DNA of 64,000 nucleotides, taken from Deltaproteobacteria bacterium. Lineage in GTDB: Bacteria > Myxococcota_A > Polyangia > Polyangiales > JADJMO01. Position numbers and translations under genes: made by a program. The notes below the pieces were generated by a model. The model was not told the origin of the DNA, made no database searches, and was given only the letters and a program-made list of their open reading frames with translations. Shown here in pieces: positions 7,101-52,466 of this stretch. Within the stretch, counting starts at the first letter, position 1; each line of letters begins with the position of its first letter. The DNA is taken from NCBI GenBank assembly GCA_016182965.1, contig JACPFM010000075.1, forward strand, positions 4,687 to 68,686, given 5' to 3'.

Positions 7101-7199
7101 TGCCTGGCGGCCGGCGCCAACGACTACATCGCCAAGCCGGTGCCCCTGCGCACCCTCGTCGCCGCGATCGAGCGGCACCTGCGGAGGGCGACTGCGTGA
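4182..7199 (+). CDS. hybrid sensor histidine kinase/response regulator (multiple PAS, GAF, HisKA, HATPase_c, REC)
   Basis: H-box FLASMSHELRTPLTGI, N-box LVNLLSNAVKFTP, G-boxes DEGIGI and GTGLGLALV, and a receiver domain (LLADDHDVNR...DVQMPVLDG...AKP). Repeated PAS-like segments and a GAF-like segment lie upstream. The start is uncertain (GTG 4182 or the ATG at about 4323). Confidence 0.9.
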   Translation: MARALGGIVVNGPLRAARAAASQLVNSIVVRAFARVTGRSVTPIEARMFDDMSNDSLLGMVLIDLDGTILRANAAFERMIERDVRGVRFAEITHPDDLEENLSLLRDVLAGRRRSYSLRKRYLRADGTVVHARTTATFVHGPDDRPRFGVAIVEDITDKVRAEQAMRDEASDARRAFRDIEQQIAQTREFLAAIIDHLPIALIAKDARDHRFILWNRVSEALFGRSAAEVLGKTDFDFFPREQAEFFVTKDRETLAGRVMVEIPEEPADTAAGRRWLRTRKVPIANESGAPQSLLVMCEDITERRAAELALRESRAQIELLAKVASQTNSAVMISDPDGTIRWVNDAFMRVTGYGAAELLGRHPAEILSGPDGDRRAVVEIERQLAETGRFDVECLLYTKSGRSFWGEVRGEPLLDDAGNVTSVVSVQTDITARKRGEQERQLLHEIAVAIGEAADLPSALGLVLRKVCDTTGWVIGQAWMPAGAAELSCLATWYARDAGGEEFHAESLAMRFTRGRGLPGTVWASAQPVWIRDAAAEPGFLRRSRAIDANLHAALAVPVLAGPEVVAVLEFLMRAAREEDERLVEVIGAVAAQLGAAIQRKRAEDALRVSRDELRAANEALARAARTKDDFLASMSHELRTPLTGILSLSEALQDRIFGPLDERQQRALRTIEESGRHLLELINDVLDLSKTEAGRMELHLEPCALEPLAEASLRLVKQSATAKQQTLEIEVQPRDVVTRADPRRLKQILVNLLSNAVKFTPEGKRIGVEVVGDRAAGVVRLTVRDEGIGIAPEHVPRLFQSFVQLDSRLSRAYSGTGLGLALVRRMTELHGGSVSLESAPGAGSRFTVTLPWSESDDSDPPVSSREAELPAADGAPRNVGRRVLLADDHDVNRATIGAYLEARGYVIISARDGAEAVRLARDALPDIILLDVQMPVLDGLQAMRRIREEPLTTMLPIVVLTALVMPGDRERCLAAGANDYIAKPVPLRTLVAAIERHLRRATA

Positions 7200-11650: not shown

Positions 11651-11652
<2 letters not shown>
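11559..11652. repeat. tandem heptamer/hexamer block (GGTCGAA)3(GTCGAA)2(GGCGAA)3, a 20-nt spacer, then (GACTGAC)3-4
   Basis: Direct reading. It is a chimera of one arm type from each of the two stem-loop families seen at 56041, 60024 and 62381. It sits inside the activase-dehydratase intergenic gap and abuts the 11651 stop. Confidence 0.8.
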
Positions 11653-15463
<3,811 letters not shown>

Positions 15464-15902
15464 CGATCCTCCTCGCCTCCACGCCCGAATCATGGGCACT
15501 GACACGTGAGTCCATTCCGCTTCCCCTGAGCTCGACCCCAGAGCGAGAAAACCCGCTCGATGGGCGGGGAGGGGCAGGAGATCGCGGACTAGACTGGCGT
15601 GTCAGTCCATTGTGGTAACGGGCGATCCGGTCTCTGGCAAGTCAGCTGATCGACGTCCGCTCGCGCGGCGGTGCGCGCGCGTGCGGGGCGCGTGCGGAGG
15701 CAAGTACGCGAAAAGCGCGCGGATCCGCTCAGCGCACGAGCGCGTCGAAGGCGCTCCGCGCATCGAGGTGCCTCGGCGACCTACCTCCGCTCATCGGGCG
15801 GCGGGTGCTCGAATAGGACGTCGGCGCGCGTCCGGCGCACGTGCTCGGACCGAAGCAGGGATACGCGGCAACCCGCCCGGGTGGTGGCCGCGCGCGGCGT
15901 GC

Positions 15903-37140: not shown

Positions 37141-37614
37141 ATGCGCCCCCTGTTGCTCGCGTTCCTGCCGCTCCTCGTGAGCTGCACGTACGACTTCGAC
37201 GCGTACCTCCCGCGCGGCGGCGCCGACGGCGGTCCGTCCGGCGGCTGCGCGGAGCCCGGCGCGAAGATCGCCGGCGATCGCTGCTACTTCCCGACGGCCA
37301 CGCTCGACTGGGCGGCCGCGAAGAAGGCCTGCGAAGGCGCGGGCGCGCACCTCGCGACGGTCTCGACGAGCGCGGAGGAGGCGATCGTCGAGTCGATCGG
37401 CACCGGCAACCGTTGGATCGGCCTCTCGCGCCCCTCGGGCTCGGCGACGGGCGCCGCGTCGTTCCGATGGGTCACCGGCGAGGCCGTCACCTACCTCAAG
37501 TGGGCGGTGGGCCAGCCGAGCGGCGCCGGCGAGTGCGGGCAGGTCCTCGGCACCGGCGGGTGGGGCGACGACATCTGCAACAAGCCGCTCATCGGGATCT
37601 GCGAGCGTCAGTGA
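37141..37614 (+). CDS. C-type lectin domain lipoprotein
   Basis: LPLLVSCT lipobox. CTLD signature: C.GAGAHLATVSTSAEE...RWIGLSR...FRWVTGE...YLKW..GQPSG.GECG....GGWGDDICN...GICE. Confidence 0.8.
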   Translation: MRPLLLAFLPLLVSCTYDFDAYLPRGGADGGPSGGCAEPGAKIAGDRCYFPTATLDWAAAKKACEGAGAHLATVSTSAEEAIVESIGTGNRWIGLSRPSGSATGAASFRWVTGEAVTYLKWAVGQPSGAGECGQVLGTGGWGDDICNKPLIGICERQ

Positions 37615-38621: not shown

Positions 38622-38852
38622 TCAGCTCCCGTGTCGCGTCAGCGCCGTGCGCAGCGCGTTCAGCGCGCGAAAAAGCGTCGCGTTCTCCTGCATGACCTCG
38701 CGCGAGAGCTCCTTGGCCTGCTCGGCGTCCTCGATGCGCTTGGTGGTCGCCACCATCACGCTGCGGATGAGCGTGGTCAGCTCGCGGTGGAAGCGCTCCG
38801 CCTCCTCCTCGGACGCGAAGCGCAGCGCGCGCTCCTCGCCGTCGTACCTCAT
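38622..38852 (-). CDS. small helical protein (76 aa), last gene of the NrfCD-type operon
   Basis: ATGA overlap with the NrfD-like stop. MRYDGEERALRFASEEEAERFHRELTTLIRSVMVATTKRIEDAEQAKELSREVMQENATLF... Confidence 0.55.
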   Translation of the reverse strand: MRYDGEERALRFASEEEAERFHRELTTLIRSVMVATTKRIEDAEQAKELSREVMQENATLFRALNALRTALTRHGS

Positions 38853-40111
38853 TCCGCGGCCTGCGGCGCGGCGGGCTCGTGCGCCGGCTCCGGCGCCGGC
38901 CTCGGACCATCGGCGCGCAGCTGGCCCGACTGGATCGCGATCGTGACCTTGGCGAACGCGGTGTAGAGGAACGCGCCGAAGGCGACGATGCCGAGGTTGA
39001 GGATGATCTCGCCGGCGTTCGGCGCGTACTCCTCGATCTCGCCGAGCGGGTTGGGCACGAAGCCGGGGAAGACCAGGCCCATGCCCTTCTCGGTCCAGAT
39101 GCCGACGATGGTGAGCACGCACGCCAGGTACATCAGCCTCGGGATCTGCCGCAGCTTGGGCACCAGCAAGATGACGCACGCGGTGACGTTGAACGTGAGC
39201 GCCGTCCAGATGAACTTCGGGAGCATCGAGTGCCCGTGCAGGCCGAAGTAGAGGTACTGCGCCGACGCCGAGTGCAGCGTCCCGGTATAGAACTCCCCGA
39301 AGACCTCGCAGCCGACCAGGAAGAGGTTGATCGGCATCGCGATGCGCAGCACGTAGAGGAAGTAATCGAACACGCTCTGCTTCACGTCGAGCTTCGCGAA
39401 CCGCTTGATCGCGGTGAACAGCAGGATCAGCAGCGCGGGCGCCGAGGCACCGGCGCTGATCAGGAAGCGCGGGGCGAGGATCGGCGTGTTCCAGAACGGC
39501 CGCGCGCCGAGGCCCGAGAGGAGGAAGGCGGTGACCGTGTGGATCGTGACGGCCCAGATCATCGAGAGGAAGACGAACGGCAGGTACATCATCGCCGTCG
39601 GCTTCTTGCCGCGATAGCGGCTGAAGAGCAGGTACCCGGGGATCCACAGGTTCATGAGCAGGTAGCCCGTGAACACCACCACGTCCCACGAGAGCAGCGA
39701 CGTCGGGAGGTTGAGGAAGCCGATGCCGGGCGTCAGGTGCCACAGCCGGTCGGGCCGACCGACGTCGGTCATGATGAACAAGAGGCACATCGAGACGGCG
39801 ACCACGGCCAGCAGCTCGCCGAGGAGCACCAGCTCCTTGATGTCCTCGCGGTGGTAGAGGTACGCCGGCACGACGAGCACCGCGGCGCCGGCGGCCACGC
39901 CGACGAAGTACACGAAGTTGGCGATGCCGATGCCCCAGCTCACGTGGTCCGACATGTTCGTGACCACCAGGCCGGCGTGGAGGTCGTGCGACCACTCCAG
40001 ACCGGCGGCCACGATGAACAGGAGCAGCGTGCCCATCCACACGTAGTACGTGCGGCTGCCCTTGAGCGCGCATAGCGCCATCCGCGGGAAGTACGTGATC
40101 AGGTCTTTCAT
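38849..40111 (-). CDS. NrfD/PsrC family quinol-interacting integral membrane subunit
   Basis: About 420 aa with 8-10 TM helices and an NrfD-like N-terminal region (HVSWGIGIANFVYFVGVAAG). It follows the 4Fe-4S subunit. ATG at 40111 with GGGGAG upstream; alternative GTG at 40129. Confidence 0.75.
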   Translation of the reverse strand: MKDLITYFPRMALCALKGSRTYYVWMGTLLLFIVAAGLEWSHDLHAGLVVTNMSDHVSWGIGIANFVYFVGVAAGAAVLVVPAYLYHREDIKELVLLGELLAVVAVSMCLLFIMTDVGRPDRLWHLTPGIGFLNLPTSLLSWDVVVFTGYLLMNLWIPGYLLFSRYRGKKPTAMMYLPFVFLSMIWAVTIHTVTAFLLSGLGARPFWNTPILAPRFLISAGASAPALLILLFTAIKRFAKLDVKQSVFDYFLYVLRIAMPINLFLVGCEVFGEFYTGTLHSASAQYLYFGLHGHSMLPKFIWTALTFNVTACVILLVPKLRQIPRLMYLACVLTIVGIWTEKGMGLVFPGFVPNPLGEIEEYAPNAGEIILNLGIVAFGAFLYTAFAKVTIAIQSGQLRADGPRPAPEPAHEPAAPQAAE

Positions 40112-40156
40112 GCGAACGCTCCCCGGCACGCCACGCGATCGGCCATGTCGGCCCCA

Positions 40157-41116
40157 TCAACCATAGAAGTAGAAGAACCGCGGCTCGGTCCCCAGCTCCT
40201 CCTTGAGGATCCAGACGCGCTTGTTCTCGACGATCTTGCGCACCTCGCTCTCGGGATCGGCGAGGTTGCCGAACTTGCGCGCGCCGGTGGGGCACGCCTC
40301 GTAGCAGGCCGGATAACGGCCGTTACGGGTGCGGTGCAGGCAGAAGGTGCACTTCTCGACGACCCCGACGGGCCGGATCTGGTTCGAGAGATAACCCTGG
40401 TTCGGGTTGATGCGCTCGGGCTCGATCGAAGGCGCGACCCAGTTGAAGCGCCGCGCGTGGTACGGGCACGCCGCCTGGCAGTAGCGGCATCCGATGCACC
40501 AGTTGTAGTCGACGACGACGATGCCGTCGGGCTCCTTCCACGTGGCCTTGGTCGGACACGCGCGGACGCACGGGGCGTTGTCGCACTGGTGGCACTGCAC
40601 CGGGAGGTAGAACTTGCCCTTCTGCGGGACCTTCTCCGGGTTGTAGTGGACGGTGCCCTTCTCGAGGTGCTGCGAGCCGTTGTCGACCTCGATGACGCGG
40701 ATGTAGCGGATCTCCGGATCGTTCGGGAGGTTGTTCTCCCGCGCGCACGCCTCGACGCAGCGACGGTTGCCGTTGCACTGGCTCAGGTTGAGCGCATAGG
40801 CGAAGTGCACGCCGTCCATCGGCTGCGGGTCGGTGATGTGCACCTTCACGCCGGTGATCGCGCGGGTGCGCTCCTCGAGACGGGCGAAGACCTTCTTCTT
40901 CTCCTCGTCCGTCATCACCTTGTAGTGCTTCTGCAGCAGCGCGTCGAAATCGGGCTTGGTGCCGCACGACGTCGCGGCGAGTGCGGTGGCCGCGCCGGCG
41001 GCGAGCTTCAAGAAGCCGCGCCGGGACTCGTCGTGATCCCCGTGATCGTGATCGTGACCGTGCTCGTCGCACGAGCACGCGTCGGGTTCGCGGAACATCG
41101 GGAGCGACTTTTTCAT
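40157..41116 (-). CDS. Tat-exported four-cluster [4Fe-4S] ferredoxin subunit (NrfC/PsrB/HmcB-like)
   Basis: Twin-arginine SRRGFLKLAAG. Cys groups CNGNRRCVEAC, CHQCDNAPCVRACP, CIGCRYCQAACP and CTFC...CYEACP. An unusual HGHDHDHGDHDE stretch precedes the Tat motif. Confidence 0.85.
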   Translation of the reverse strand: MKKSLPMFREPDACSCDEHGHDHDHGDHDESRRGFLKLAAGAATALAATSCGTKPDFDALLQKHYKVMTDEEKKKVFARLEERTRAITGVKVHITDPQPMDGVHFAYALNLSQCNGNRRCVEACARENNLPNDPEIRYIRVIEVDNGSQHLEKGTVHYNPEKVPQKGKFYLPVQCHQCDNAPCVRACPTKATWKEPDGIVVVDYNWCIGCRYCQAACPYHARRFNWVAPSIEPERINPNQGYLSNQIRPVGVVEKCTFCLHRTRNGRYPACYEACPTGARKFGNLADPESEVRKIVENKRVWILKEELGTEPRFFYFYG

Positions 41117-41118
41117 GA

Positions 41119-41673
41119 CTAGAAAGCCTTCAGCCCCTTGGAAGGCGCCGGCGGTTTCTCCGGCTTGAGCGACGGATACCGCGGGTCGTGCGGGTCGTGA
41201 CACGCCGGGCACGACTTCTTCCGCTTCTCGCCGTTCCAGTTGCCGACGACGAGGCCGTGCATGCCGGCGCGCCAGTCCTTCAACTTGTCGCCGTGGCACG
41301 CGGTGCAGAGGCGATACGCCTCGTCGAACGAGACGAGCTCACCGGTCGACGTGACCAGCTTGTCGATGTTCTTGATGGAGTGGCACTGGTAGCACCAGAA
41401 GGCGTCCTCGCCGTGCGAGAACTCGTGGTTGCGGACCTCGTGGAACTCCTTGAGGACGTACTTCTCGGGGCGCGGCTTGCGATCGGCGTGGCAGCCGGAG
41501 CACGGATACGCCGGCAGCATGTCGCTGCGCGGCTCTATCTGCACTTGCTCGGCGTGCTTCGGAGGAGGGGTCGGGGGGGTGTCGTGACCGTGTTTGCCGC
41601 GGCAGGCGACCAGCGCAAATGCCGACAGCGCCCACGCGCAAAGTCTGCCCGCCGTCACGTGCAGCGCCCTCAC
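41119..41673 (-). CDS. tetraheme c-type cytochrome lipoprotein
   Basis: Lipobox ALVAC. Four CXXCH motifs (CSGCH, CYQCH, CTACH, CPACH). GTG start overlapping the upstream stop (GTGA). Confidence 0.85.
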   Translation of the reverse strand: MRALHVTAGRLCAWALSAFALVACRGKHGHDTPPTPPPKHAEQVQIEPRSDMLPAYPCSGCHADRKPRPEKYVLKEFHEVRNHEFSHGEDAFWCYQCHSIKNIDKLVTSTGELVSFDEAYRLCTACHGDKLKDWRAGMHGLVVGNWNGEKRKKSCPACHDPHDPRYPSLKPEKPPAPSKGLKAF

Positions 41674-42371
41674 GGCTTGCTCTCCTTGTTCGAGACGGTC
41701 GACGCGGAGGCGGAGGGCGCAGGAAACGCGCTGCTACCGGGGAGGGGCGCGCTCGCTACGGCAGCGAGCGGTCGCTTCGGCGGGCGCTCCATCGCCTCGG
41801 TGCCGCGGACGGGCTCGTCAATCGCGATGCGACAGAACGACGCGCTGAACTCGCCCGCGACGCAGCTCCCCGTATGATCACGGAAGCACGCCGACATCAC
41901 GCCCTTCAGGCGCAGATCGGGGCCGGGCTCGTCGAGCACCAGCAGCGCATTGGCCTCGCCGACGCCGATCCAGAAGCCGTCGTCCTGGACCTGGTAGTGG
42001 ACCTCCCACTTGCCGCCGTCCTTGACGGTGGTGGTCGACTTCTCGCGCTCGAGCTTGTCGCGCCCGACGCGTCGTAGCCAGACGCTCGGCGACTTCGGCG
42101 ACTCGAGCGCGCCGCACGGCGTCGGCGAGGCCGAGGCGTATAGCTTGATCTCGACCCGCTCGAAGCCGGGGCGCGCGTCGACGTAGTAGCGCGCGCTCTT
42201 CACCTGGAAGGGCTGGCCGTCGATCTTGCCGCTCAGCGGCCCGACGTGGATCGAGTCCTCGGAGGTGGGCGGAGGCGGGGGTTCCTTCGGAGGACCGAGC
42301 CGCGGTTGGCGATCGCACGCGACGAACAACGTGCACGCGAGAAGTGCGATTTGCGCCGTCCCCCAGTTCAC
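41670..42371 (-). CDS. lipoprotein of unknown function, first gene of the NrfCD-type operon
   Basis: ALLACTLFVAC lipobox, a Pro-rich linker, then a beta-rich domain. The start (GTG 42371) is uncertain. Confidence 0.55.
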   Translation of the reverse strand: MNWGTAQIALLACTLFVACDRQPRLGPPKEPPPPPTSEDSIHVGPLSGKIDGQPFQVKSARYYVDARPGFERVEIKLYASASPTPCGALESPKSPSVWLRRVGRDKLEREKSTTTVKDGGKWEVHYQVQDDGFWIGVGEANALLVLDEPGPDLRLKGVMSACFRDHTGSCVAGEFSASFCRIAIDEPVRGTEAMERPPKRPLAAVASAPLPGSSAFPAPSASASTVSNKESKP

Positions 42372-42605
42372 GGCCGGGCCAATCTGCAAGCCATGCGCCA
42401 CGCCTGAGCGTCCCTCGCAAACATCGCGATCGGTTCGCGCGACGACGCAGGGCCTGCGGGCTTTGCGCAAGCAGTGCGTCCGAGCGGGTTCGACCGACGC
42501 GAAAAGGTCGCGTGCCTCCACGCAATTTTCTCCGGTCGAATTCTCGGGCGCGGTCTCGACGGCACGGCAGTTGCGTCTGGGGGCCCCACCAGCGTGGGGG
42601 TCTGA

Positions 42606-43049
42606 ATGAGTGACGAAGGGCCGAAGGACGTTCCCGGTCGACGTGATTTCCTGGGAACGACCATTACCGGAACGGCCGCGACGCTCGGCGTCGTGTCGGC
42701 GTATCCGGTCGTCAGGTTCCTCTCTCCGCGACCCGATCCGGGCCAGCGCATCGCCACCGCCGGCGAGGCGGAAAAGTTCCTTCCTGGAACGTCCAAAACG
42801 GTGCTGCTCGGCGACAAGCCGGTATTGGTGATTCGCCTCGACGACGGTCAATTCCGCGCGTTCAGCGCGATATGCACGCACCTGCAGTGCGTGGTCGCCT
42901 ACTCGGCGCAGCACCGACAGATCGAGTGCCCCTGCCACAAGGGCGTGTACTCCCTCGAGGGCGCGAACGTCAGCGGCCCGCCGCCGCGTCCGCTCCAGTC
43001 CGTCGGCGTCGAGGTCGTCAACGGCATCGTCACCCTCACCGAGGCCTGA
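42606..43049 (+). CDS. Rieske [2Fe-2S] subunit of a cytochrome bc-type complex (Tat signal)
   Basis: GRRDFLGTTITGTAA twin-arginine anchor. Cluster boxes CTHLQC and CPCHKG. Confidence 0.9.
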   Translation: MSDEGPKDVPGRRDFLGTTITGTAATLGVVSAYPVVRFLSPRPDPGQRIATAGEAEKFLPGTSKTVLLGDKPVLVIRLDDGQFRAFSAICTHLQCVVAYSAQHRQIECPCHKGVYSLEGANVSGPPPRPLQSVGVEVVNGIVTLTEA

Positions 43050-43055
43050 TCCCGC

Positions 43056-44099
43056 ATGTTGGACGACACGCGCAAATGGTTCTCGGACCGGGTCGGCGCG
43101 CCGGTGCTCCTCGAGAAGCTGCGCGAGCGGCGCGTGAGCGGCCTCAGCCCGACGCACTTCGTCGGCGGTGTGCTGCTGATGCTCTTCCTCCTCGAGGTGG
43201 CGAGCGGCATCCTGCTGATGCTCCCCTATCGCCCCGATCCGCAGCACGCGCACGCGTCGGTCGTGGCGATCGCCGGGCGCCTCCCCTACGGCAGCCTGGT
43301 GCGCGGCGTCCACGCGTGGACCAGCCACATGTTCGTCGCGATGCTGTTCGTGCAGATCGCGACCGTCCTCCTCAACCGCGTCTACCGTGAGCCGAAGGAG
43401 CTCGTCTGGTGGACGGGCCTCCTCTTGTTGGTGACCGGCGTCTCGATGGCCTTCACCGGCGCGTTGCTCCCCTGGAGCCAGAACGCCTACCTGCAGGCGC
43501 GCGTCAGCAGCGAGATGATCGGCCAGGGCCCGATCTTCGGCCCGTGGCTGAAGCGCATGCTGCGCGGCGGCGACGACATCACGCCGTGGAGCCTCGGCCA
43601 CGCGTACGGGTTCCACACCGGCGTGCTGCCCGCGCTGGCGACCCTGTTGTTCGGCTTCCACATGGCGGTGGTCCGCCGGTCTTCGGGCGGCCCCGTCGAG
43701 GGTGCGACGGTGCCGGTCTACCCGGAGTTCATCGTGCGGCTCGCGGCGGTGTGCACCGCGGTGCTGCTCCTGATCGTGTCGCTCGCGACCTTCGTCCCCG
43801 TCGCGGTGGGCACGCCGGTGAACATGGCCCAGTCGATGGCGCCCGCCGGCGGCGGGACAGCCCCCTCCGATGTGCTGCCTCCCTGGTACTTCCTGTTCCT
43901 CCACGACCTGCTGCGCGCCGCCCCGCCCCGCCTGCTCGGCGTCGAGAGCGCGAAGTTCGTGCTCGGCGCGCTGTCGGTGCTGGCGCTGTTCGCCGTCGCG
44001 CTGCCGTTCATCGACCGCAAGGGCTCGAAGATCACCGCGTACATCGGCGCGGTGTTGATCGTCGTCTTCCTGGTGCTCACCGGCCATGCGATCCTCTGA
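43056..44099 (+). CDS. cytochrome b (fused b6-like N-domain and subunit IV-like C-domain)
   Basis: 347 aa. His ligands occur in helices (RGVHAWTSHMFV..., GFHTGVLPALATLLFGFHM). It contains the PWSQ motif region and 7-8 TM helices. Confidence 0.85.
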   Translation: MLDDTRKWFSDRVGAPVLLEKLRERRVSGLSPTHFVGGVLLMLFLLEVASGILLMLPYRPDPQHAHASVVAIAGRLPYGSLVRGVHAWTSHMFVAMLFVQIATVLLNRVYREPKELVWWTGLLLLVTGVSMAFTGALLPWSQNAYLQARVSSEMIGQGPIFGPWLKRMLRGGDDITPWSLGHAYGFHTGVLPALATLLFGFHMAVVRRSSGGPVEGATVPVYPEFIVRLAAVCTAVLLLIVSLATFVPVAVGTPVNMAQSMAPAGGGTAPSDVLPPWYFLFLHDLLRAAPPRLLGVESAKFVLGALSVLALFAVALPFIDRKGSKITAYIGAVLIVVFLVLTGHAIL

Positions 44100-45462
44100 A
44101 CACACGCTCCTGTTCGCGGCGTCGATCGCGCTCGCGGTCGGCGTCGCGTCCTCGGCGTCGCGCGCCGACGCACCTCCGCTTCCCTCTGCGTCGGCGGCCG
44201 CGCCGCCCGCCGCGTCGGGCAGCGCGGCGAAGCCGGCCGGCTCCGAGGAGGCGCCGCGCCCCAAGCGCCCCGAGCGCGACGCCAACACCTGCTTCACCTG
44301 CCACCTCTCGCTGCCCGACGCGAAGCTGCGAAAGGCCGCCGAGGAGTTCTCGCACAGCGTGCACAAGGACGAGCGCATCGGCTGCGTCGCCTGTCACAAG
44401 GGCAACGCCTCCGATCCGACCGTGCAGGCGCACGACAAGACCACCGGCTTCATCGTGCGGCCGACGCACGCGCAGGTCGCGGCGCTGTGCGGCGGCTGCC
44501 ACGAAGACCCGACGTTCGTCCGTCGCTTCAACGCCCGGCTCGGCGTCGATCAGCGCAAGCTCTTCGAGCTGAGCCGCCACGGGAAGATGGCGGCCGCGGG
44601 CGACGCCGCCTCGCCGACGTGCACCAACTGCCATGGCGTGCACGGCATCCTGGCGGTCAGCTCGCCCAACGCCGAGGTCAACCGCCGGCGCGTGCGCGAT
44701 CTCTGCGCGAAGTGTCACGGCAACGTCGAGACGATGAAGCCCTACGGCCTCGCTGCGACGCAGCCCGTCGCATGGTCGAAGAGCGTCCACGGCAAGGCCT
44801 TCCACGAGGGCAGCGAGCAGGCGCCGACCTGCACCGGCTGCCACAGCCCGCACGCCGGTACGCTCCCCGGCACGGCGAGCGTCGCCGCGCTGTGCGACCG
44901 CTGCCACCAGGACGAGCGGGAGCTGTTCCTCAAGAGCCCCCACTCGCGCGCGTTCCGCAAGCTCGGGCTCGCCGACTGCGTGCCCTGCCACGGCGACCAC
45001 GACGTCACCCGCACCAGCTGGCTCGCGGGCATGACCCCGGACTCCGCGTGCGCGAAGTGCCACAGCAAGGACGACAAGCCGAAGAAGGTCGCGGAGGACA
45101 TCGCCGTCCTCCTCGAGGACGTGCAGAAGGCGGAGCACGCCGCGGCCGTCGATCTCGCCGAGGCGAAGACGGCCGGCCTGCTCGTGCCTGACGCGAGCTT
45201 CGCGGTCGACCGCCTGCGCACCGCGAAGATCCGCCTGATCACCACCGTCCACACGCTCGACATGCAGCAGCTCGGCGACGACGCGAACGCCGCGAAGATG
45301 ATCGCCCAGGAGGCGCGCGATCTCCTCACCAAGGCGCGCCGCGATCGGCAGGTCGAGCGGCGCGGCTACTTCGTCGCGATCGGCCTCGCCTCGCTCTTGC
45401 TCACCCTGCTCGTCGCCAAATCGATCCAGCTCGCGCGTCGGAGGCGGCGGGGTGAGTCATGA
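44086..45462 (+). CDS. nine-heme c-type cytochrome with a C-terminal membrane anchor
   Basis: Signal peptide. Nine CXXCH motifs (CFTCH, CVACH, CGGCH, CTNCH, CAKCH, CTGCH, CDRCH, CVPCH, CAKCH). C-terminal TM helix YFVAIGLASLLLTLLVA. Confidence 0.85.
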   Translation: MRSSEHTLLFAASIALAVGVASSASRADAPPLPSASAAAPPAASGSAAKPAGSEEAPRPKRPERDANTCFTCHLSLPDAKLRKAAEEFSHSVHKDERIGCVACHKGNASDPTVQAHDKTTGFIVRPTHAQVAALCGGCHEDPTFVRRFNARLGVDQRKLFELSRHGKMAAAGDAASPTCTNCHGVHGILAVSSPNAEVNRRRVRDLCAKCHGNVETMKPYGLAATQPVAWSKSVHGKAFHEGSEQAPTCTGCHSPHAGTLPGTASVAALCDRCHQDERELFLKSPHSRAFRKLGLADCVPCHGDHDVTRTSWLAGMTPDSACAKCHSKDDKPKKVAEDIAVLLEDVQKAEHAAAVDLAEAKTAGLLVPDASFAVDRLRTAKIRLITTVHTLDMQQLGDDANAAKMIAQEARDLLTKARRDRQVERRGYFVAIGLASLLLTLLVAKSIQLARRRRRGES

Positions 45463-47696
45463 CGGAGCCGAGCCGCTCGAGGTGGCGCGCCGCAGCCGTC
45501 GTGTCCGCGGTCGCTGCCGCGGTCGTTGCGGCGTTGCTCGTGTTCACCGGGGCACGCGCGCAGCGCTCGGCTGAGTTCTGCACGCCGACCTGCCACGTCG
45601 CCGCCGGCGGGGCGCACCTGCCGACGCCGGGGCACGCCTCGGTGTCGTGCCAGTCGTGCCACGCGATCAGCCCCGGCGTCGGCATCCGCCTCGCGGTGAC
45701 CCGCGCGCTCGGCGGAAAGAGCGCGAAGCCGCACGGCAAGGCGACGGCGGCGACCTGCGCGAGCTGCCACAACTCGTCCGATGCCGCGTGGGATCGCATC
45801 GCGGCGACCGCCGGGCACCGCAAGCACCCCGCCGCCGAGAAGCTCGATTGCCTCTCCTGTCACGCGAAGACCCTCCACGCCAAGAAGGCGAGCGCGGCCG
45901 AGACGTGCAGCGAGTGCCACGACGACGCGCGGCTGCACGCGAAGGACAAGCTCGACGAGGGCCCGAAGCCTCAGTGCCTCGGCTGCCACAACTTCTCGGT
46001 GCCGCGGAAGGGCGGCGTCGATCACGTCGCGCTGACCACCGACGCGTGCGCGCGCTGCCACTCCGAGGCGGCGAAGAAGGGCGCCGGCGTCGTGTCCGCG
46101 AGCCTCCCCCCGAGCCTGGCCGACGTGGTGCCCGCGAGCGTGATCGACCGCGCCGGGCTCCACGGCGGCGTCGACTGCAAGCTCTGCCACCAGCCGCACG
46201 ACCACGCGACCGGCAAGGGCCCGAAGCGCGCGTGCAAGTCGTGTCACCAGATCCAGATCGTCTCGAGCAACCCGAACCTCCCGAAGGAGCACCTGCTCTG
46301 CGAGAGCTGCCACGAGCAGCACAAGCCGGTTTCGGCGGCGGGCTCTCGCTGCGTGAAGTGCCACGAGCAGGCGAGGCCGAAGGGCGACGTCACGTCGACG
46401 GCGCTGCGCCATGAACAGTGCGCGAGCTGCCACATGCCGCACACCTGGGCGGCGGCGCCCAACGAGTGCGTCACCTGCCACGGCAAGCAGGCGACGCTCG
46501 TCCAGACCCAGAGCCCCGACAAGCACCAGCGCTGCACCAACTGCCACGAGGTGCACGGCAAGCCTCCGACCGGCGCGACCTGCGGCACCTGCCACAAGGA
46601 GAACGCCAAGAAGATGCTGGCCGCCCCGGCCAAGCACCAGAACTGCATCAGCTGCCACAACCCGCACGCGCCGCAGGTGAAGGTGCCGGCGACCTGCTCG
46701 GAGTGTCACAAGGCGCCGCTGCACCAGCTGGTCACGCTCGGCCCGGCGGCGCACGCGAAGGCGAGCTGCCAGTCGTGCCACACCATCCACGGCAACCCGA
46801 AGGCCGACACGAAGAAGTGCGCGGAGTGCCACAAGGACAAGGGCACCGCGGTCGCGGCCGCGAGCAAGCTCGAGCACCGGACCTGCACCTCCTGCCACCT
46901 GCCGCACCGGTTCGCGATCGACCAGGCGTCGCCGCCCTGCGCGAAGTGCCACGTCGAGATCGGCAACATCGTCGCGACGGGCAAGGGGAGCCACGGCGGC
47001 AAATGCGTCAATTGCCACGCGCCGCACGGGCAGCCGACGGTCGCGCGCGAGAAGTGCCTCGGCTGCCACGTGAAGGTGCAGCTGAAGGCGCCGAACCCCG
47101 ATCACAACAAGTGCGCCTCCTGCCACAAGCCGCACATCCAGGCCGCCTCTGCGATCGCCCGCTGCGGCGCGTGCCATGCCGACAAGGCGAAGCTCGCCGC
47201 GCTGTGGCCGGCGGGGTCGGCGCACCGCGAGAAGTGCAACGAGTGCCACAAACCGCACGACGTCCGTGACAAGGCGGCGTGCGGGAACTGCCACCAGAAG
47301 CAGCAGATGGCCGCGATGGGCGGCAAGCACGAGTGCAAGAGCTGCCACGCGGTGCACCAGGCGCCGCCGCCCGACAAGAAGGGTTGGTGGGGCCGCTGCG
47401 TGAATTGTCACGCGGACAAGGTGAAGGCCACCTCCGCCTCCAAGCACTCCAAGTGCGACTCGTGTCACCAGCCGCACAAGTTCGGAAAGCCCGACTGCAA
47501 GAGCTGCCACGAGAAGCAGGCGACCGCCGGCCTGCACACCTCGAAGAGCCACCAGGCCTGCACGAAGTGCCACGACACGCACAGTGCCTCGAAGCCGTCG
47601 CGCGCCGACTGCCTGAGCACCTGCCACTCGAACCTGGCCAACCACCAGCCCGACGCGAAGATCTGCACCGGGTGTCACGTGTTCAAGCTGCAGTGA
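45459..47696 (+). CDS. giant multiheme c-type cytochrome: 32 CXXCH plus 2 CX3CH motifs in 745 aa
   Basis: Motifs counted directly in the translation. N-terminal signal anchor AAAVVSAVAAAVVAALLVF. ATGA overlap with the 9-heme gene. Confidence 0.85.
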   Translation: MTEPSRSRWRAAAVVSAVAAAVVAALLVFTGARAQRSAEFCTPTCHVAAGGAHLPTPGHASVSCQSCHAISPGVGIRLAVTRALGGKSAKPHGKATAATCASCHNSSDAAWDRIAATAGHRKHPAAEKLDCLSCHAKTLHAKKASAAETCSECHDDARLHAKDKLDEGPKPQCLGCHNFSVPRKGGVDHVALTTDACARCHSEAAKKGAGVVSASLPPSLADVVPASVIDRAGLHGGVDCKLCHQPHDHATGKGPKRACKSCHQIQIVSSNPNLPKEHLLCESCHEQHKPVSAAGSRCVKCHEQARPKGDVTSTALRHEQCASCHMPHTWAAAPNECVTCHGKQATLVQTQSPDKHQRCTNCHEVHGKPPTGATCGTCHKENAKKMLAAPAKHQNCISCHNPHAPQVKVPATCSECHKAPLHQLVTLGPAAHAKASCQSCHTIHGNPKADTKKCAECHKDKGTAVAAASKLEHRTCTSCHLPHRFAIDQASPPCAKCHVEIGNIVATGKGSHGGKCVNCHAPHGQPTVAREKCLGCHVKVQLKAPNPDHNKCASCHKPHIQAASAIARCGACHADKAKLAALWPAGSAHREKCNECHKPHDVRDKAACGNCHQKQQMAAMGGKHECKSCHAVHQAPPPDKKGWWGRCVNCHADKVKATSASKHSKCDSCHQPHKFGKPDCKSCHEKQATAGLHTSKSHQACTKCHDTHSASKPSRADCLSTCHSNLANHQPDAKICTGCHVFKLQ

Positions 47697-47818
47697 CCCT
47701 GATGGGGCAACCTTCAGGCCCCCAGCGAGTTGCGGCGTGAGGCCGTAATCGAGCGTGTCGCGCGACCTCGCACGAGCGTTCCGGCGCGGGCGCCGGCGAT
47801 GACGGTCCGAACCGCAGG

Positions 47819-47839
47819 ATGGCAACAATGAGTTGCCAT
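47819..47839. promoter_or_regulatory. AT-richer perfect palindrome ATGGCAAC-aatga-GTTGCCAT, 15 nt upstream of the 47854 start
   Basis: Direct reading. It lies immediately 5' of the GGCAGGAG Shine-Dalgarno-like sequence. Confidence 0.3.
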
Positions 47840-47853
47840 TGGCAGGAGTCTCG

Positions 47854-48171
47854 ATGCCCTGGTACGACGTTGCCGCGTACTTCTTCGGAGGGGCGTTCCT
47901 CGCCAACTTCGTCCCGCACTTCGTCGCCGGCGTGTCGGGGCGCCCGTTCCAAACCCCGTTCGCGACGCCGCCGTTCCGAGGGCTCTCGTCACCCGCCGTG
48001 AACGTCCTCTGGGGCCTGTTCAATCTCGCGGCGGCCTACGCGCTGCTCGTGGTCGTCGGGAGCTTCGAGCTGCGCCGCGTGGCCCACGTCGCGATCTTCG
48101 CGGCGGGCTTGGGGCTCGCATCGGTCGGTCTGGCGCGGAGTCTGGGCAGACTGCAGCGCGGTGCGGCGTAG
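47854..48171 (+). CDS. small membrane protein (105 aa, 3 TM)
   Basis: ATG preceded by GGCAGGAG. MPWYDVAAYFFGGAFLANFVPHFVAG... Confidence 0.55.
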   Translation: MPWYDVAAYFFGGAFLANFVPHFVAGVSGRPFQTPFATPPFRGLSSPAVNVLWGLFNLAAAYALLVVVGSFELRRVAHVAIFAAGLGLASVGLARSLGRLQRGAA

Positions 48172-49831: not shown

Positions 49832-50162
49832 GGCGAGAGGATAGGCGGGCGCGAGGCTCGAAGCGCTGCGCGCCGGGTCCCTGAGCACCGGCCGCTCGAA
49901 CCTGGCCGACCACCCGGATCGCTCCGCGGTGTTTCGGCTCGCGGAGCGGGATGAAGCGGGAGAGCGGCGAATCCGGATCGTCCACGACGTCCCGTTCCGA
50001 GCCGGCGACCTGCGCGCGTCAGTGCAACGCGTCGCGCGTGATCACCCACGTGTGTGCACGTCGTGTCTCGCGTTCGACACGCGCGAATGTGCGGTGCGAT
50101 GTGATAGTCAGATCGACAGGCGTGCTCTCGCGTTGATCGCAATCCCCGTCGACGAGGTGCTC

Positions 50163-52466
50163 ATGCGCAGCTTCTCTTGCCTTGGCATTGGCCTTCTGCT
50201 GACCGCGTTGACCGGGTGTGGCGGCGATTCGTCGGGCACCGGTGAGGCCGACACCGGCGAGGGCATCGCCGATACCGGCGGCGACGACACCGGCGCAGTG
50301 GTCGAGACCGGAACACCCGAGGACACGGGGGCGATCGACGACACGGGCGCGGTCGAGGACACCGGGGTGGCAGAGACGGAGGCCGACGCCGCCGACGCCG
50401 ACGAGGCGGGCGAGGCCTCGGCCGAGGCCGGCGAGGCCGGCGAGGACGCCGATGGCGGCGAGACCTGCGCGAAGACCGTGTGCACCACGACGGCCGGTGC
50501 GGTCTGCGTCGACACCACGTCCGACCCCGCGCACTGCGGCGCGTGCGGCAACGCATGCACCACGCCGGCCAACGCGTCTGCCACGTGCGCGTCGTCCTCC
50601 TGCGGGTTCGCCTGCAACACCGGCTACGGCGACTGCAACGGCAACGTGACCGACGGCTGCGAGAAGAGCCTGACCGACGATCCGGCCCACTGCGGGGCGT
50701 GCGGCACGGTGTGCGCGCTCGCGAACGTGGCGACCCACGGCTGCACGAGCGCCGGCTGCACGATCGCGACCTGCACCACGGACCATGCCGACTGCGACAC
50801 GACGGCGGCGAACGGCTGCGAGTCGAACCTCCCGACCGATCCGAACAACTGCGGCGCGTGCGGCAACAAGTGCACCCTCGCGCACGCCACCCCGAAGTGC
50901 GTGTCGAGCAAGTGCGAGATCGCTTCGTGCGACGCCGGGTACGTCGACCTCGACAAGAACCCGGCGAACGGCTGCGAGTACTCGTGCACGTCGAGCACCG
51001 GCGACGACAAGCCCGACGACGGCTTCGGCGACACGAACTGCGACGGCATCGACGGCGACCTCACCAAGGCGGTCTTCGTCTCCCCGACCGGCGACGACAC
51101 GACCGGCGACGGCACGATGACCAAGCCGTACCGCACGCTGACCAAGGCGATCACGGTGGCCGCGACCGCGAGCAAGGACGTGTACGCGGACAAGGGCGTG
51201 TACGTCGACACGTCCGTCAACCTCGCCGACGGCGTGGGCGTCTACGGCGGATACGACAGCACGACGCCGTTCAGCGGCGCACCTGCCGGGTACTGGGGCC
51301 GCGGCGCGGCCAACGTCTCGAAGATCACGGGCGGCACCCTCGCGGTCGCGGCCGTGGGCCTGACGAAGCCCACGATGCTCGATCTCTTCACCATCACGTC
51401 CGCGAACGGCTCCACACTGCCGAGCGGCGAGGGCGAACCGAGCGTCGGCGTGCTCGTGAGCAGCAGCGGCACTTACTTCACGCTGCGCGGATCGACGGTG
51501 ATCGCGGGGAATGGCGGGAACGGGACGGACGGCGCGTCGGCGACGAGCGGGGCGACAGGCTCGTCGGGGACGGCCGGGCAGGACGGACGGAGCAACGGGT
51601 CGGGTGGAGGATGCGGGAATAACGCCGCACCCGTGGCAGGCACCGCCGGCGTCGGTGGATGCGGCAACGCGGGCGCCGCCGGCGGCGCGGCCGGCCAGGG
51701 GACGGGTGGGGGCACGGCCGGCGCCACCGCGACCGGCGGCGCCACCGGTGGGCCGGGCGGTGCCGGAGCCGGGGCGTGTCCGGGCACCAGCGCGAGGGCC
51801 GGCGACGGAACCGTGGGCACCGCCGGTGCGAGCGGTGCCGCGGGTGCGCATGGCTTCGGGGGCAACGCTACCGGCAAGATCGTCGGCGGGCTTTGGGTCG
51901 CTTCGAGTGGCACCGATGGCGCCGTCGGCGTGATCGGCGGCGGCGGCGGCGGGGGCGGTGGTGGAGGCGGCGGCACTTCGGCGGGGACGGGCGGCGGCTG
52001 CTGCAACGCCTATGGCGGCGCCGGCGGTGGCGGTGGCGGCGGCGGCTGTGGTGGCGGCGCAGGTAAGGCCGGCAAGGGCGGCGGCGCTTCGTTCGCGCTC
52101 CTCGTCATCGGCTCCGACGTGACCATCGACAAGGTGAAGCTCACGAGCGGCAACGGCGGCGCGGGCGGCGCTGGCACCAACGGCGGTGCGGGGGGCGGCG
52201 GCGGCGCGGGCGGCGCGGGCGGCTCCGCGATCAACAACAGCGGCAAGGGCGGCGGCGGTGGCGTGGGCGGCAAAGGTGGCGACGGCGGCAACGGCGGCGG
52301 CGGCGGCGGCGGCCCGTCGATCGTCATCGCACGCAGCGGCACTTCGGTCATCACCCGGGTCGGCACGAGCACTTTCACCATCGGCGCGCGCGGCGCCGCT
52401 GGCAGCGGCTTCGTTCCCTCGCCGTCCAAGGACGGCGAGCGGGCCGAGGAGATGTCACTGCCCTGA
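50163..52466 (+). CDS. large surface lipoprotein: acidic DTG repeats, 3-4 Cys-rich DPAHCGACG repeats, a beta-helix-like region, and Gly-rich GGAGG repeats
   Basis: LLLTALTGCGG lipobox. Repeats DPAHCGACGNAC..C..SSCGF.C..GY.DC...GCE. TKAVFVSPTGDDTTGDGTMTKPYRTLTKAI is a typical parallel beta-helix N-cap. The C-terminal 300 aa are dominated by G(G/A)xGG tracts. Confidence 0.75.
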   Translation: MRSFSCLGIGLLLTALTGCGGDSSGTGEADTGEGIADTGGDDTGAVVETGTPEDTGAIDDTGAVEDTGVAETEADAADADEAGEASAEAGEAGEDADGGETCAKTVCTTTAGAVCVDTTSDPAHCGACGNACTTPANASATCASSSCGFACNTGYGDCNGNVTDGCEKSLTDDPAHCGACGTVCALANVATHGCTSAGCTIATCTTDHADCDTTAANGCESNLPTDPNNCGACGNKCTLAHATPKCVSSKCEIASCDAGYVDLDKNPANGCEYSCTSSTGDDKPDDGFGDTNCDGIDGDLTKAVFVSPTGDDTTGDGTMTKPYRTLTKAITVAATASKDVYADKGVYVDTSVNLADGVGVYGGYDSTTPFSGAPAGYWGRGAANVSKITGGTLAVAAVGLTKPTMLDLFTITSANGSTLPSGEGEPSVGVLVSSSGTYFTLRGSTVIAGNGGNGTDGASATSGATGSSGTAGQDGRSNGSGGGCGNNAAPVAGTAGVGGCGNAGAAGGAAGQGTGGGTAGATATGGATGGPGGAGAGACPGTSARAGDGTVGTAGASGAAGAHGFGGNATGKIVGGLWVASSGTDGAVGVIGGGGGGGGGGGGGTSAGTGGGCCNAYGGAGGGGGGGGCGGGAGKAGKGGGASFALLVIGSDVTIDKVKLTSGNGGAGGAGTNGGAGGGGGAGGAGGSAINNSGKGGGGGVGGKGGDGGNGGGGGGGPSIVIARSGTSVITRVGTSTFTIGARGAAGSGFVPSPSKDGERAEEMSLP

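Follow-up and report, generated by a model that had tools for sequence, protein, structure and literature searches.

Why would one bacterium encode two different quinone-interacting membrane modules back to back, and where would the electrons that they handle go? The question is raised by a 64-kb stretch of contig JACPFM010000075.1 from a Deltaproteobacteria bacterium of the Polyangia (hereafter the window; ~70% G+C throughout), in which genes for a Rieske/cytochrome b core, a 9-haem cytochrome (c9) and a 34-haem cytochrome (c34) diverge from genes for a tetrahaem cytochrome (c4), an iron-sulfur (FeS) subunit and an NrfD-type membrane subunit. The cluster is real, conserved and typical of a Polyangiaceae-type lineage, not an anomaly. 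In our reading, to which we give about an even chance, the two arms form a co-inherited pair of quinone-linked inner-membrane modules that would share a periplasmic network of ~47 haems, with c34 acting as a wire or store, and would exchange electrons with partners in the periplasm or outside the cell under anaerobic or microoxic conditions.

Gene layout and conservation of the paired arms

An open reading frame (ORF) check recovered all ten ORFs that a preliminary description of the window had placed in the cluster, and the gene junctions and the 234-bp divergent region that it had reported were likewise borne out by the following coordinates:

38622-38852, minus strand: p76, 76 amino acids (aa); G+C content at third codon positions (GC3) 0.95; final gene of the minus arm in the window
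38849-40111, minus strand: NrfD, 420 aa; NrfD/PsrC-type, DsrP-like; GTG alternative start at 40129
40157-41116, minus strand: FeS subunit, 319 aa; periplasmic, NrfC/DsrO-like; Fer4_11
41119-41673, minus strand: c4, 184 aa; tetrahaem c-type cytochrome lipoprotein, lipobox LVAC
41670-42371, minus strand: beta-rich lipoprotein, 233 aa; lipobox FVAC; opening gene of the minus arm
42372-42605: divergent intergenic region, 234 bp, common to both arms
42606-43049, plus strand: Rieske [2Fe-2S] protein; Pfam Rieske; N-terminus of the twin-arginine translocation (Tat) type
43056-44099, plus strand: cytochrome b, 347 aa; fused b6 + subunit IV type
43353-43355, plus strand: CAG codon for Gln100 of cytochrome b, at the position of b6 His100, the helix-B ligand of the n-side haem
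44086-45462, plus strand: c9, nonahaem cytochrome c; 9 CXXCH motifs
45459-47696, plus strand: c34, 745 aa; 32 CXXCH and 2 CX3CH motifs
47833-48171, plus strand: 112-aa ORF; TTG start, two hydrophobic segments, good codon bias

GC3 ranged from 0.82 to 0.97 in the ten ORFs, and the coding-type pattern was absent from overlapping alternative ORFs. In the minus arm, the lipoprotein gene (whose start codon is uncertain by a few codons) overlaps c4 by 4 nt, c4 and the FeS gene are separated by 2 nt, the gap between the FeS and NrfD genes is 27 nt from the GTG start or 45 nt from the ATG start, and NrfD overlaps p76 by 4 nt. In the plus arm, 6 nt separate the Rieske and cytochrome b genes, cytochrome b overlaps c9 by 14 nt, and c9 overlaps c34 by 4 nt. 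Counting 4 motifs in c4, 9 in c9 and 34 in c34 gave 47 c-haem motifs, in agreement with the approximate number in the preliminary description, and no CXXCH was found elsewhere in the coding ORFs of the window. The 4-, 9- and 34-haem proteins are the only c-type cytochromes of the window, which has no cytochrome c1, cytochrome f or dihaem c. A scan of 30 flanking ORFs revealed no molybdopterin subunit, oxidase or porin, and the earlier statement that the window lacks a c1, a molybdopterin subunit and a terminal oxidase held. Pfam and NCBIfam profile searches agreed with the Rieske, cytochrome b, NrfD and FeS assignments, and the anatomy of two quinone-interacting modules on divergent arms had been described correctly.

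Gene neighbourhoods, whose survey the preliminary description had suggested, were retrieved via relatives of c34, cytochrome b or NrfD; individual loci are referred to by numbers with the prefix L. Of the 11 loci with a c34 orthologue, 10 have both arms back to back (L001-L006, L083, L085, L086 and L087). Identity of c34 in these ten is 35-52%, the flanks differ and the minor genes are rearranged. All ten are high-GC, and the names, where given, are Polyangiaceae, Byssovorax and 'delta proteobacterium' metagenome-assembled genomes (MAGs). The cluster had been thought unexpected in a myxobacterium-like genome, an impression that its recurrence in Polyangiaceae/Byssovorax-type MAGs corrects. A profile scan of contigs with an 8-sequence c34 alignment returned at least 80 loci, most of them unrelated multihaem cytochromes at 23-28% identity; four full clusters (L003-L006) were among the matches listed, which do not amount to a reliable taxonomic census.

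The conserved core comprises eight genes, encoding the lipoprotein, c4, the FeS subunit, NrfD, the Rieske protein, cytochrome b, c9 and c34. The ten-gene cluster of the preliminary description is thus retained as this core together with p76, which is conserved in a sub-lineage, but not the 112-aa ORF. The latter, 136 nt downstream of c34, matched no Pfam or NCBIfam family and had no homologue in any related locus; it was dropped from the cluster because of this lack of a counterpart, and is probably an unrelated small membrane protein. The two modules are passed on, and probably expressed, together in Polyangiaceae-type myxobacteria.

Parts of the cluster were also found apart. L088, a 'Deltaproteobacteria' MAG of 41% GC, carries the c4-FeS-NrfD trio at 31%, 63% and 55% identity, respectively, without a Rieske gene. 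The trio is divergent from an operon for a monohaem c, a 469-aa porin-like protein (signal peptide, C-terminal Phe, no Pfam match), a 9-haem protein and a 7-haem lipoprotein. In L085, genes for a 437-aa protein (signal peptide, no Pfam match, weakly similar to the 469-aa protein of L088), two 12-haem proteins, each with a lipobox-like N-terminus, and a 9-haem protein with a Big_2 domain come after the full cluster. These putative porin-cytochrome operons occupy 12220-18782 in L085, beside the cluster, and 3878-8392 in L088, beside the trio alone. Rieske-cytochrome b-c9 genes without the NrfD arm occur in L075 (an Acidobacteriota MAG) and L026 (unclassified). L084 (7674-12193) has a c34 orthologue (35% identity) without either arm, divergent from a gene for a 520-aa multihaem + Ni_hydr_CYTB (CbcL-like) protein and adjoining cytochrome c maturation genes; this arrangement indicates that a c34-type protein can pair with a different quinol dehydrogenase.

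Conservation also differs between the arms: relatives of NrfD reach 89% identity and those of the FeS subunit 65-82%, against at most 64% for c34. The NrfD of the remote L088 (55%) is closer to that of the window than are several Polyangiaceae NrfDs (45%), suggesting two NrfD subtypes or exchange of the arm.

A second, recurring cytochrome set lies near the cluster in the Polyangiaceae MAGs L001 (15535-21542), L087 (12307-18187) and L083 (12564-16199) and is not present in the window. It consists of an ~550-aa NapC/NirT-type cytochrome and ~700-aa multihaem proteins with a b-type (Ni_hydr_CYTB) domain; L083 also encodes two ~900-aa collagen/PKD/CarboxypepD_reg multihaem proteins.

Subunits and their cofactor motifs

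The two large cytochromes distinguish the plus arm. All 34 haem motifs of c34, including both CX3CH, were invariant in an 18-sequence alignment of diverse members, and exactly 34 motifs were present in 94 of 118 full-length relatives. These relatives (>100 full-length, 31-64% identity, 700-790 aa) are named, where a name is given, Polyangiaceae, Byssovorax or cytochrome c3 family. The protein has ~22 residues per haem, and from residue 281 on the motif spacing alternates between ~17 and ~22 residues. As c34 contains 38 further His besides those of the motifs, bis-His ligation is possible for all 34 haems. Its N-terminus is a hydrophobic helix, with FCxxxCH within ~12 residues, and a hydrophobic segment is present in 113 of 118 relatives; residues 10-70 weakly matched NrfH (2j7a_C, E 4e-4), a lead towards a possible NapC/NirT-like membrane-proximal end.

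c9 matched Paired_CXXCH_1 (E 7e-18) and, in part, the DmsE family, and a PDB sequence search with it returned nothing significant. It has an N-terminal signal peptide and a helical C-terminal region with a hydrophobic segment (429-447) followed by RRRRR, the C-terminally anchored topology of cytochromes c1 and f. Its orthologues directly follow cytochrome b in every related locus, including L026 and L075. Judging from these segments, c9 (C-terminal) and c34 (N-terminal) are probably both tethered to the inner membrane.

The Rieske protein matched Pfam Rieske (E 1.6e-15) and the NCBIfam b6f/bc1 Rieske models, all of the latter under cutoff. Its Tat-type N-terminus (GRRDFL) scored 16.3 bits in the TAT signal model (cutoff 16.7), and both cluster-binding boxes (CxH ... 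CxxH) are present as CTHLQC and CPCHKGVY. As no Ser follows CPCH-x, the usual rules for Rieske potentials suggest a low- or mid-potential cluster of the menaquinol type.

Cytochrome b matched Pfam Cytochrome_B (E 1.2e-31) and Cytochrom_B_C (E 2.6e-7), with cytochrome b6 (2zt9_A, E 4e-31) as its best PDB sequence match, and lacks the haem ci cysteine (HFVGG where b6 has FYCLGG). Together with its relatives at ≥42% identity it falls in a clade of 62 clusters, sharply set apart from the next relatives (~30%). His86, His187 and His202 are kept, and the position of b6 His100 is occupied by Gln, leaving the set of four His incomplete. Among 61 clade members this position is His in 44, Gln in 12, Leu in 3 (L001 has Leu) and Gly in 2, so that the ligand is lost in 17 of 61; it is His in 58 of 58 outgroup cytochromes b. 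In L085 both n-side ligands are gone (Trp100, Tyr202). The Qo motif of the window's cytochrome b is PPWY, without the acidic second residue of PEWY/PDWY. P-W-Y with Pro at position 2 occurs in 60 of 62 clade members, and the nearest outgroup cytochromes b mostly have APWY. A possible association between ligand loss and the presence of p76 was rejected, as L087 has both p76 and His100.

These substitutions suggest that the n-side haem and the Qi site are under relaxed constraint in the clade. Because of the change of His100 to Gln, the recurrent loss across the clade and the PPWY motif, a canonical Q cycle is doubtful: the window's cytochrome b complex probably lacks one, and this variant is probably a simple quinol:cytochrome c oxidoreductase without the full Q cycle. 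The bc-type unit of the preliminary description therefore stands as to its protein families, but with an n-side haem ligand missing and PPWY at the Qo site it may not work as a normal bc complex. Loss of a His ligand of haem bH/bn has precedents in Pyrobaculum, whose cytochromes b systematically lack the second bH ligand (PMC4122944), and in the Chlamydomonas petB-H202Q 'QiKO' b6f, in which haems bh and ci are lost and quinol oxidation is kept (PMC3112540). The present loss differs in being patchy within one bacterial clade and in replacing the helix-B ligand by Gln, Leu, Gly or Trp.

In the minus arm, NrfD matched Pfam NrfD (E 1.3e-39), showed ~10 transmembrane segments by hydropathy and marginally passed the NCBIfam DsrP equivalog (352.3 bits, cutoff 350). 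Its PDB sequence matches were weak (6lod_C, E 2e-6; 6f0k_C, E 4e-5); both entries are deposited as 'Polysulphide reductase NrfD', and we take them to be alternative complex III structures, a point on which the search output itself is silent. The FeS subunit matched Fer4_11 (E 1.3e-21) and fell short of NCBIfam DsrO (191.5 bits, cutoff 200), with QrcC, ArrB, TtrB and NrfC scoring lower still. A Tat motif (SRRGFLK) is followed by a lipobox Cys, and both features, together with the Cys pattern, are conserved in 8 orthologues. The preliminary description of a Tat-exported four-cluster protein was right as to the Tat motif and the four Cys groups, but there are 15 rather than 16 cluster cysteines (groups of 3+4+4+4) and the protein is also a lipoprotein. 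All orthologues have Asn in place of the second group I Cys, which by analogy with NrfC-type proteins suggests three [4Fe-4S] clusters plus either one [3Fe-4S] cluster or an empty site. Residues 19-30 (window 41027-41062, minus strand) form a His/Asp-rich stretch, HGHDHDHGDHDE, in the Tat n-region immediately ahead of SRRGFLK; in the orthologues its place is taken by an unrelated sequence of the ERVEKxVE type, which makes the stretch specific to this genome.

c4 has four CXXCH motifs and gave weak Cytochrome_C7 and c3 Pfam matches only, with no PDB sequence relative and no match to Cytochrom_NNT, the NrfH model or DsrJ. Its orthologues are 41-75% identical in all paired loci. The lipoprotein family (95 representatives) has no Pfam or NCBIfam match. 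C19, C86 and C180 are invariant and C162 and C170 are ≥90% conserved, giving four conserved Cys after the lipobox. The AlphaFold2 model of the lipoprotein is all-beta with 11 strands (predicted local distance difference test score, pLDDT, 87), and a Foldseek search of the PDB returned no meaningful match to the fold (best TM 0.2). Its gene is present in all ten paired loci, 5' of c4 in closer relatives and 3' of NrfD in the others; a structural or docking role is our guess. p76 showed no Pfam or NCBIfam match, signal peptide, transmembrane or hydrophobic segment; as it looks cytoplasmic, it may be an assembly factor. Copies 49-57% identical to it occur in L001, L003, L006, L086 and L087, between the FeS and NrfD genes in L003, L006 and L086 and after NrfD in the other closer relatives that carry it, and p76 is absent from L002, L004, L005, L083 and L085.

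A promoter scan of the 234-bp intergenic region gave no match to a sigma-70-like promoter. Comparison of six such regions for shared words yielded a weak GCGCAAAG/TTGCGCAA word in four of the six loci and one FNR-like palindrome in L001, both too weak to be called regulator sites.

Comparison with known quinone-linked complexes

Full-text literature searches found no paper on this pairing, or on this cluster in Myxococcota or Polyangia, consistent with the preliminary remark that the gene order matches no characterised complex. The literature searched contained no description of the arm pairing, of the conserved beta-rich lipoprotein or of the 34-haem family, whereas the kinds of component are already known. 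The likeness to Rieske/cytochrome b units of Geobacter and anammox bacteria, pointed out earlier, proved apt.

The Geobacter ext cluster (GSU2930-2937) is a Rieske/cytochrome b cluster with 10- and 12-haem cytochromes (PMC2825233, PMC5877670), comprising 12-haem ExtM, 10-haem ExtN, the Rieske protein ExtO, cytochrome b ExtP, ExtQ and ExtS (PMC5877670). As in the window, a Rieske protein and a b6-like cytochrome b are encoded with large multihaem cytochromes and not with a monohaem c1. Both clusters are conserved within their lineages, proposed to link quinol oxidation to the periplasm and biochemically uncharacterised (PMC2825233, PMC5877670). ExtP was the best NCBIfam match of the window's cytochrome b, but at 152.6 bits (cutoff 290) the latter is not an ExtP orthologue. 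Further, ext encodes a 23-kDa ExtP and a separate membrane protein ExtQ, whereas cytochrome b is fused with subunit IV here; the gene order is reversed, ExtM and ExtN lying upstream of the Rieske gene in ext; and the cytochromes have 9 and 34 haems instead of 10 and 12. The porin ExtI, the rhodanese ExtH and the selenoprotein ExtKL have no equivalent in the window, which adds the divergent NrfCD-type arm.

For the minus arm, the closest composition is that of Geobacter Cbc4, which consists of the tetrahaem CbcS, the four-cluster FeS protein CbcT and the membrane subunit CbcU (bioRxiv 10.1101/2025.04.14.648717) and is proposed to be a menaquinol:cytochrome c oxidoreductase feeding periplasmic cytochromes (bioRxiv 10.1101/2025.04.14.648717; PMC13591261). 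Compared by composition, the minus-arm core has the same three parts, contiguous with gaps of 2-45 nt. CbcS is of the NapC/NirT type with a transmembrane anchor, whereas c4 is a lipoprotein with weak c7/c3-type matches. The FeS subunit differs in its 15 cluster cysteines and its lipid anchor, and the arm has the additional conserved beta-rich lipoprotein, plus p76 in the sub-lineage.

DsrMKJOP, Qrc and alternative complex III share with the minus arm a periplasmic FeS protein, a 10-transmembrane NrfD-type subunit and a multihaem cytochrome, and the best-scoring curated models for the arm were DsrP and DsrO. However, DsrMKJOP includes DsrM, DsrK and the trihaem DsrJ, none of which is present in the arm or its flanks, and the cytochrome here has four haems. 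Alternative complex III contains ActB with a molybdopterin-like domain, NrfD-type ActC and ActF, pentahaem ActA and monohaem ActE. ActB and QrcB carry the molybdopterin-like domain, which the 319-aa FeS protein lacks; and in place of two NrfD subunits the arm has one, with a tetrahaem cytochrome and an ActC-like PDB match of only E 2e-6. Assignment to alternative complex III, Qrc, an Hmc/Nhc-type complex or DsrMKJOP was therefore rejected, the defining subunits being missing.

Anammox bacteria possess Rieske/cytochrome b complexes with multihaem subunits. Like the plus arm, those of anammox bacteria and 'Ca. Methanoperedens' join a non-canonical Rieske/cytochrome b core to multihaem cytochromes, as part of anaerobic chains based on menaquinone (PMC5244752 for Methanoperedens). 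Compared by description only, the anammox partners are octahaem HAO-like or NAD(P) oxidoreductase subunits and the Methanoperedens context is nitrate reductase; neither includes a 34-haem subunit or a divergent NrfCD arm. A porin-cytochrome (Pcc/Mtr-type) conduit requires an outer-membrane beta-barrel whose gene accompanies those of periplasmic and surface multihaem cytochromes; the window has no candidate for the barrel, and only L085 and L088 have putative ones.

Proposed electron flow through the two modules

From this material we infer which quinone is used, which way electrons flow, whether the arms are coupled physically or functionally and what accepts the electrons, as follows. The plus arm would form a Rieske/cytochrome b quinol-oxidising core in which c9 and N-terminally anchored c34 fill the place of cytochrome c1 or f. 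The minus arm would form a Cbc4/DsrOP-like complex of the 10-transmembrane NrfD, the lipoprotein FeS subunit, c4 and the beta-rich lipoprotein. Both would link the quinone pool, presumably menaquinone in a myxobacterium, to a shared periplasmic pool of ~47 c-haems, with c34 as a long periplasmic wire or electron store. We favour net flow from quinol outward, electrons passing on to periplasmic acceptors, or to extracellular ones via conduits encoded elsewhere, as happens in anaerobic or microoxic respiration by extracellular electron transfer.

Several observations argue for this arrangement, among them the domain and motif assignments, the tight gene junctions, the recurrent pairing of the arms and the conserved haem count of c34. 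The proteins carry anchors or export signals: the N-terminal segment of c34 and C-terminal segment of c9, lipoboxes in c4, the FeS subunit and the lipoprotein, and Tat motifs in the Rieske and FeS proteins. Other Polyangiaceae loci carry nearby cytochromes resembling quinol dehydrogenases, of the NapC/NirT and multihaem + Ni_hydr_CYTB types. The pattern of modules found together, apart and beside other multihaem genes matches interchangeable inner-membrane quinone modules wired to multihaem networks, and it is this pattern that chiefly, if indirectly, speaks for a role in electron transfer within the periplasm or outside the cell. The conduit, periplasm-spanning or extracellular, that the preliminary description proposed gains from the association of the modules with putative porin-cytochrome genes in L085 and L088, but the window has no outer-membrane component, so that an extracellular conduit is not established for it.

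Other points weigh against this reading. No outer-membrane conduit or terminal reductase was found in the window, which covers ~38 kb upstream and 16 kb downstream of the cluster. Each arm occurs alone (the NrfCD arm in L088, the Rieske arm in L026 and L075), so their coupling is not obligatory. The AlphaFold2 model of c34 (mean pLDDT 52.6, with helix 6-36 at ~83-85) is too poor for the shape or length of the supposed wire to be read from it, and the N-terminal segment may be either an anchor or a signal peptide cleaved at a possible ARA-Q site. Bis-His multihaem cytochromes are usually low-potential and fit poorly with a high-potential chain driven by a menaquinol-fed Rieske protein. Lastly, a Pro as the second residue of the Qo motif has been associated with complexes that would run backwards (PMC4122944).

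This last point keeps alive an unlikely alternative in which flow is inward: electrons from Fe(II), reduced humics, an electrode, a partner cell or some other donor in the periplasm or outside the cell would enter the haem network and reach the quinone pool by way of the Qo site or the NrfD module. Entry through the latter would agree with the general behaviour of Qrc and similar NrfD-type modules, which are quinone reductases fed by periplasmic cytochromes. Inward flow is suggested by the PPWY motif of the clade and the APWY of most of its nearest outgroup: reverse operation has been proposed for the Acidithiobacillus bc1 and for APWY-clade bc complexes, and Pro at position 2 (in the APWY clade, and as PPWY in A. 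ferrooxidans) is linked to complexes that are presumed to run in reverse (PMC4122944). However, a Q cycle without the n-side haem would be crippled in reverse as well, and the window encodes no donor-oxidising enzyme of the Cyc2 or MtoA/PioA type.

About equally improbable, in our view, is that the arms are two independent quinol:cytochrome c oxidoreductases that share a locus without physical or obligatory functional coupling. They would then give the quinone pool parallel outlets, each suited to acceptors of a different potential, as ImcH, CbcL and CbcBA do in Geobacter. Several parallel inner-membrane oxidoreductases have indeed been described in Geobacter (PMC13591261). The solitary arms of other lineages fit this view, and the far better conservation of the minus arm (NrfD compared with c34) suggests partly separate evolutionary constraints. 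Against it, pairing in ten of eleven loci despite rearranged small genes and differing flanks exceeds what would be expected of unrelated neighbours.

Coupling could also be much tighter, with a Q cycle split between the arms, although we consider this very improbable. The Qo site would bifurcate, one electron passing via the Rieske protein and c9 to the acceptor-facing chain. The low-potential electron would exit from haem bL to low-potential c-haems on the periplasmic side, for example at the membrane-proximal, NapC-like end of c34, and c4, the FeS subunit and NrfD would carry it back to the quinone pool. The NrfD module would thus take over quinone re-reduction, so that the clade could do without the transmembrane b-haem path and the Qi site, parts of which it would have lost. 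If true, the arms would be halves of one energy-converting machine, which would explain their pairing, the recurrent loss of n-side ligands and the reduction of low-potential multihaem wires by menaquinol.

Least probable is a role of the DsrOP-like minus arm in sulfite or sulfur transformations, as in DsrMKJOP, which the narrow pass of NrfD against DsrP and the near miss of the FeS subunit against DsrO would favour, but the window contains no DsrM, DsrK, DsrJ, DsrAB or DsrC, the tetrahaem cytochrome does not match DsrJ, and in relatives the trio adjoins multihaem and porin-like genes instead of dsr genes.

The ORFs flanking the cluster in the window are unrelated to it and include SurA-like, UDG, C-type lectin, 5'-nucleotidase, pyridine-nucleotide disulfide oxidoreductase, histidine kinase, MMPL and RtcB proteins. 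The lectin gene (37141-37614, plus strand; 157 aa; Pfam Lectin_C, E 7e-14) lies ~1 kb from the end of the minus arm and is not beside the cluster in the related loci examined; the C-type lectin domain is uncommon in bacteria. A long ORF at 49929-52466 (plus strand; G+C 0.64, 0.66 and 0.88 at the three codon positions) has no Pfam match. Inside it, a lipoprotein-like start, MRSFSCLGIGLLLTALTGCGG, precedes an acidic linker rich in Gly, Thr and Asp, after which come many Cys-rich repeats (DPxHCGACGxxC) reminiscent of myxobacterial cysteine-rich repeat proteins. A 1284-aa protein (11651-15505, minus strand) with BcrAD/BadFG-type ATPase domains and DUF2229 (CoA-enzyme activase type) suggests that the genome may encode a system for activating a radical or anaerobic dehydratase. 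A gene ~35 kb from the cluster (4182-7199, plus strand) encodes a 1005-aa hybrid sensor kinase that has several PAS domains, one GAF domain, HisKA/HATPase and a receiver domain; a PAS histidine kinase gene adjoins the cluster in L002.

Geobacter, anammox bacteria and methanotrophic archaea have been known for more than 15 years to possess Rieske/cytochrome b cores with multihaem partners, none of which, to our knowledge, has been purified or given a function. The family described here is a compact and strongly conserved form: all its subunits are membrane-tethered, and its partnership with an NrfD-type quinone module is fixed. Its natural variants that have lost one or both inner b-haem ligands offer ready tests of the need for a Q cycle, and c34, at its density of haems, is attractive for the biophysics of long-range electron transfer. 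The usual picture of Polyangiaceae is one of aerobic degraders and predators. A cluster of 47 c-haems across the lineage points to an anaerobic or redox-buffering capacity of these bacteria in soils, sediments and sludge that current metabolic models omit.

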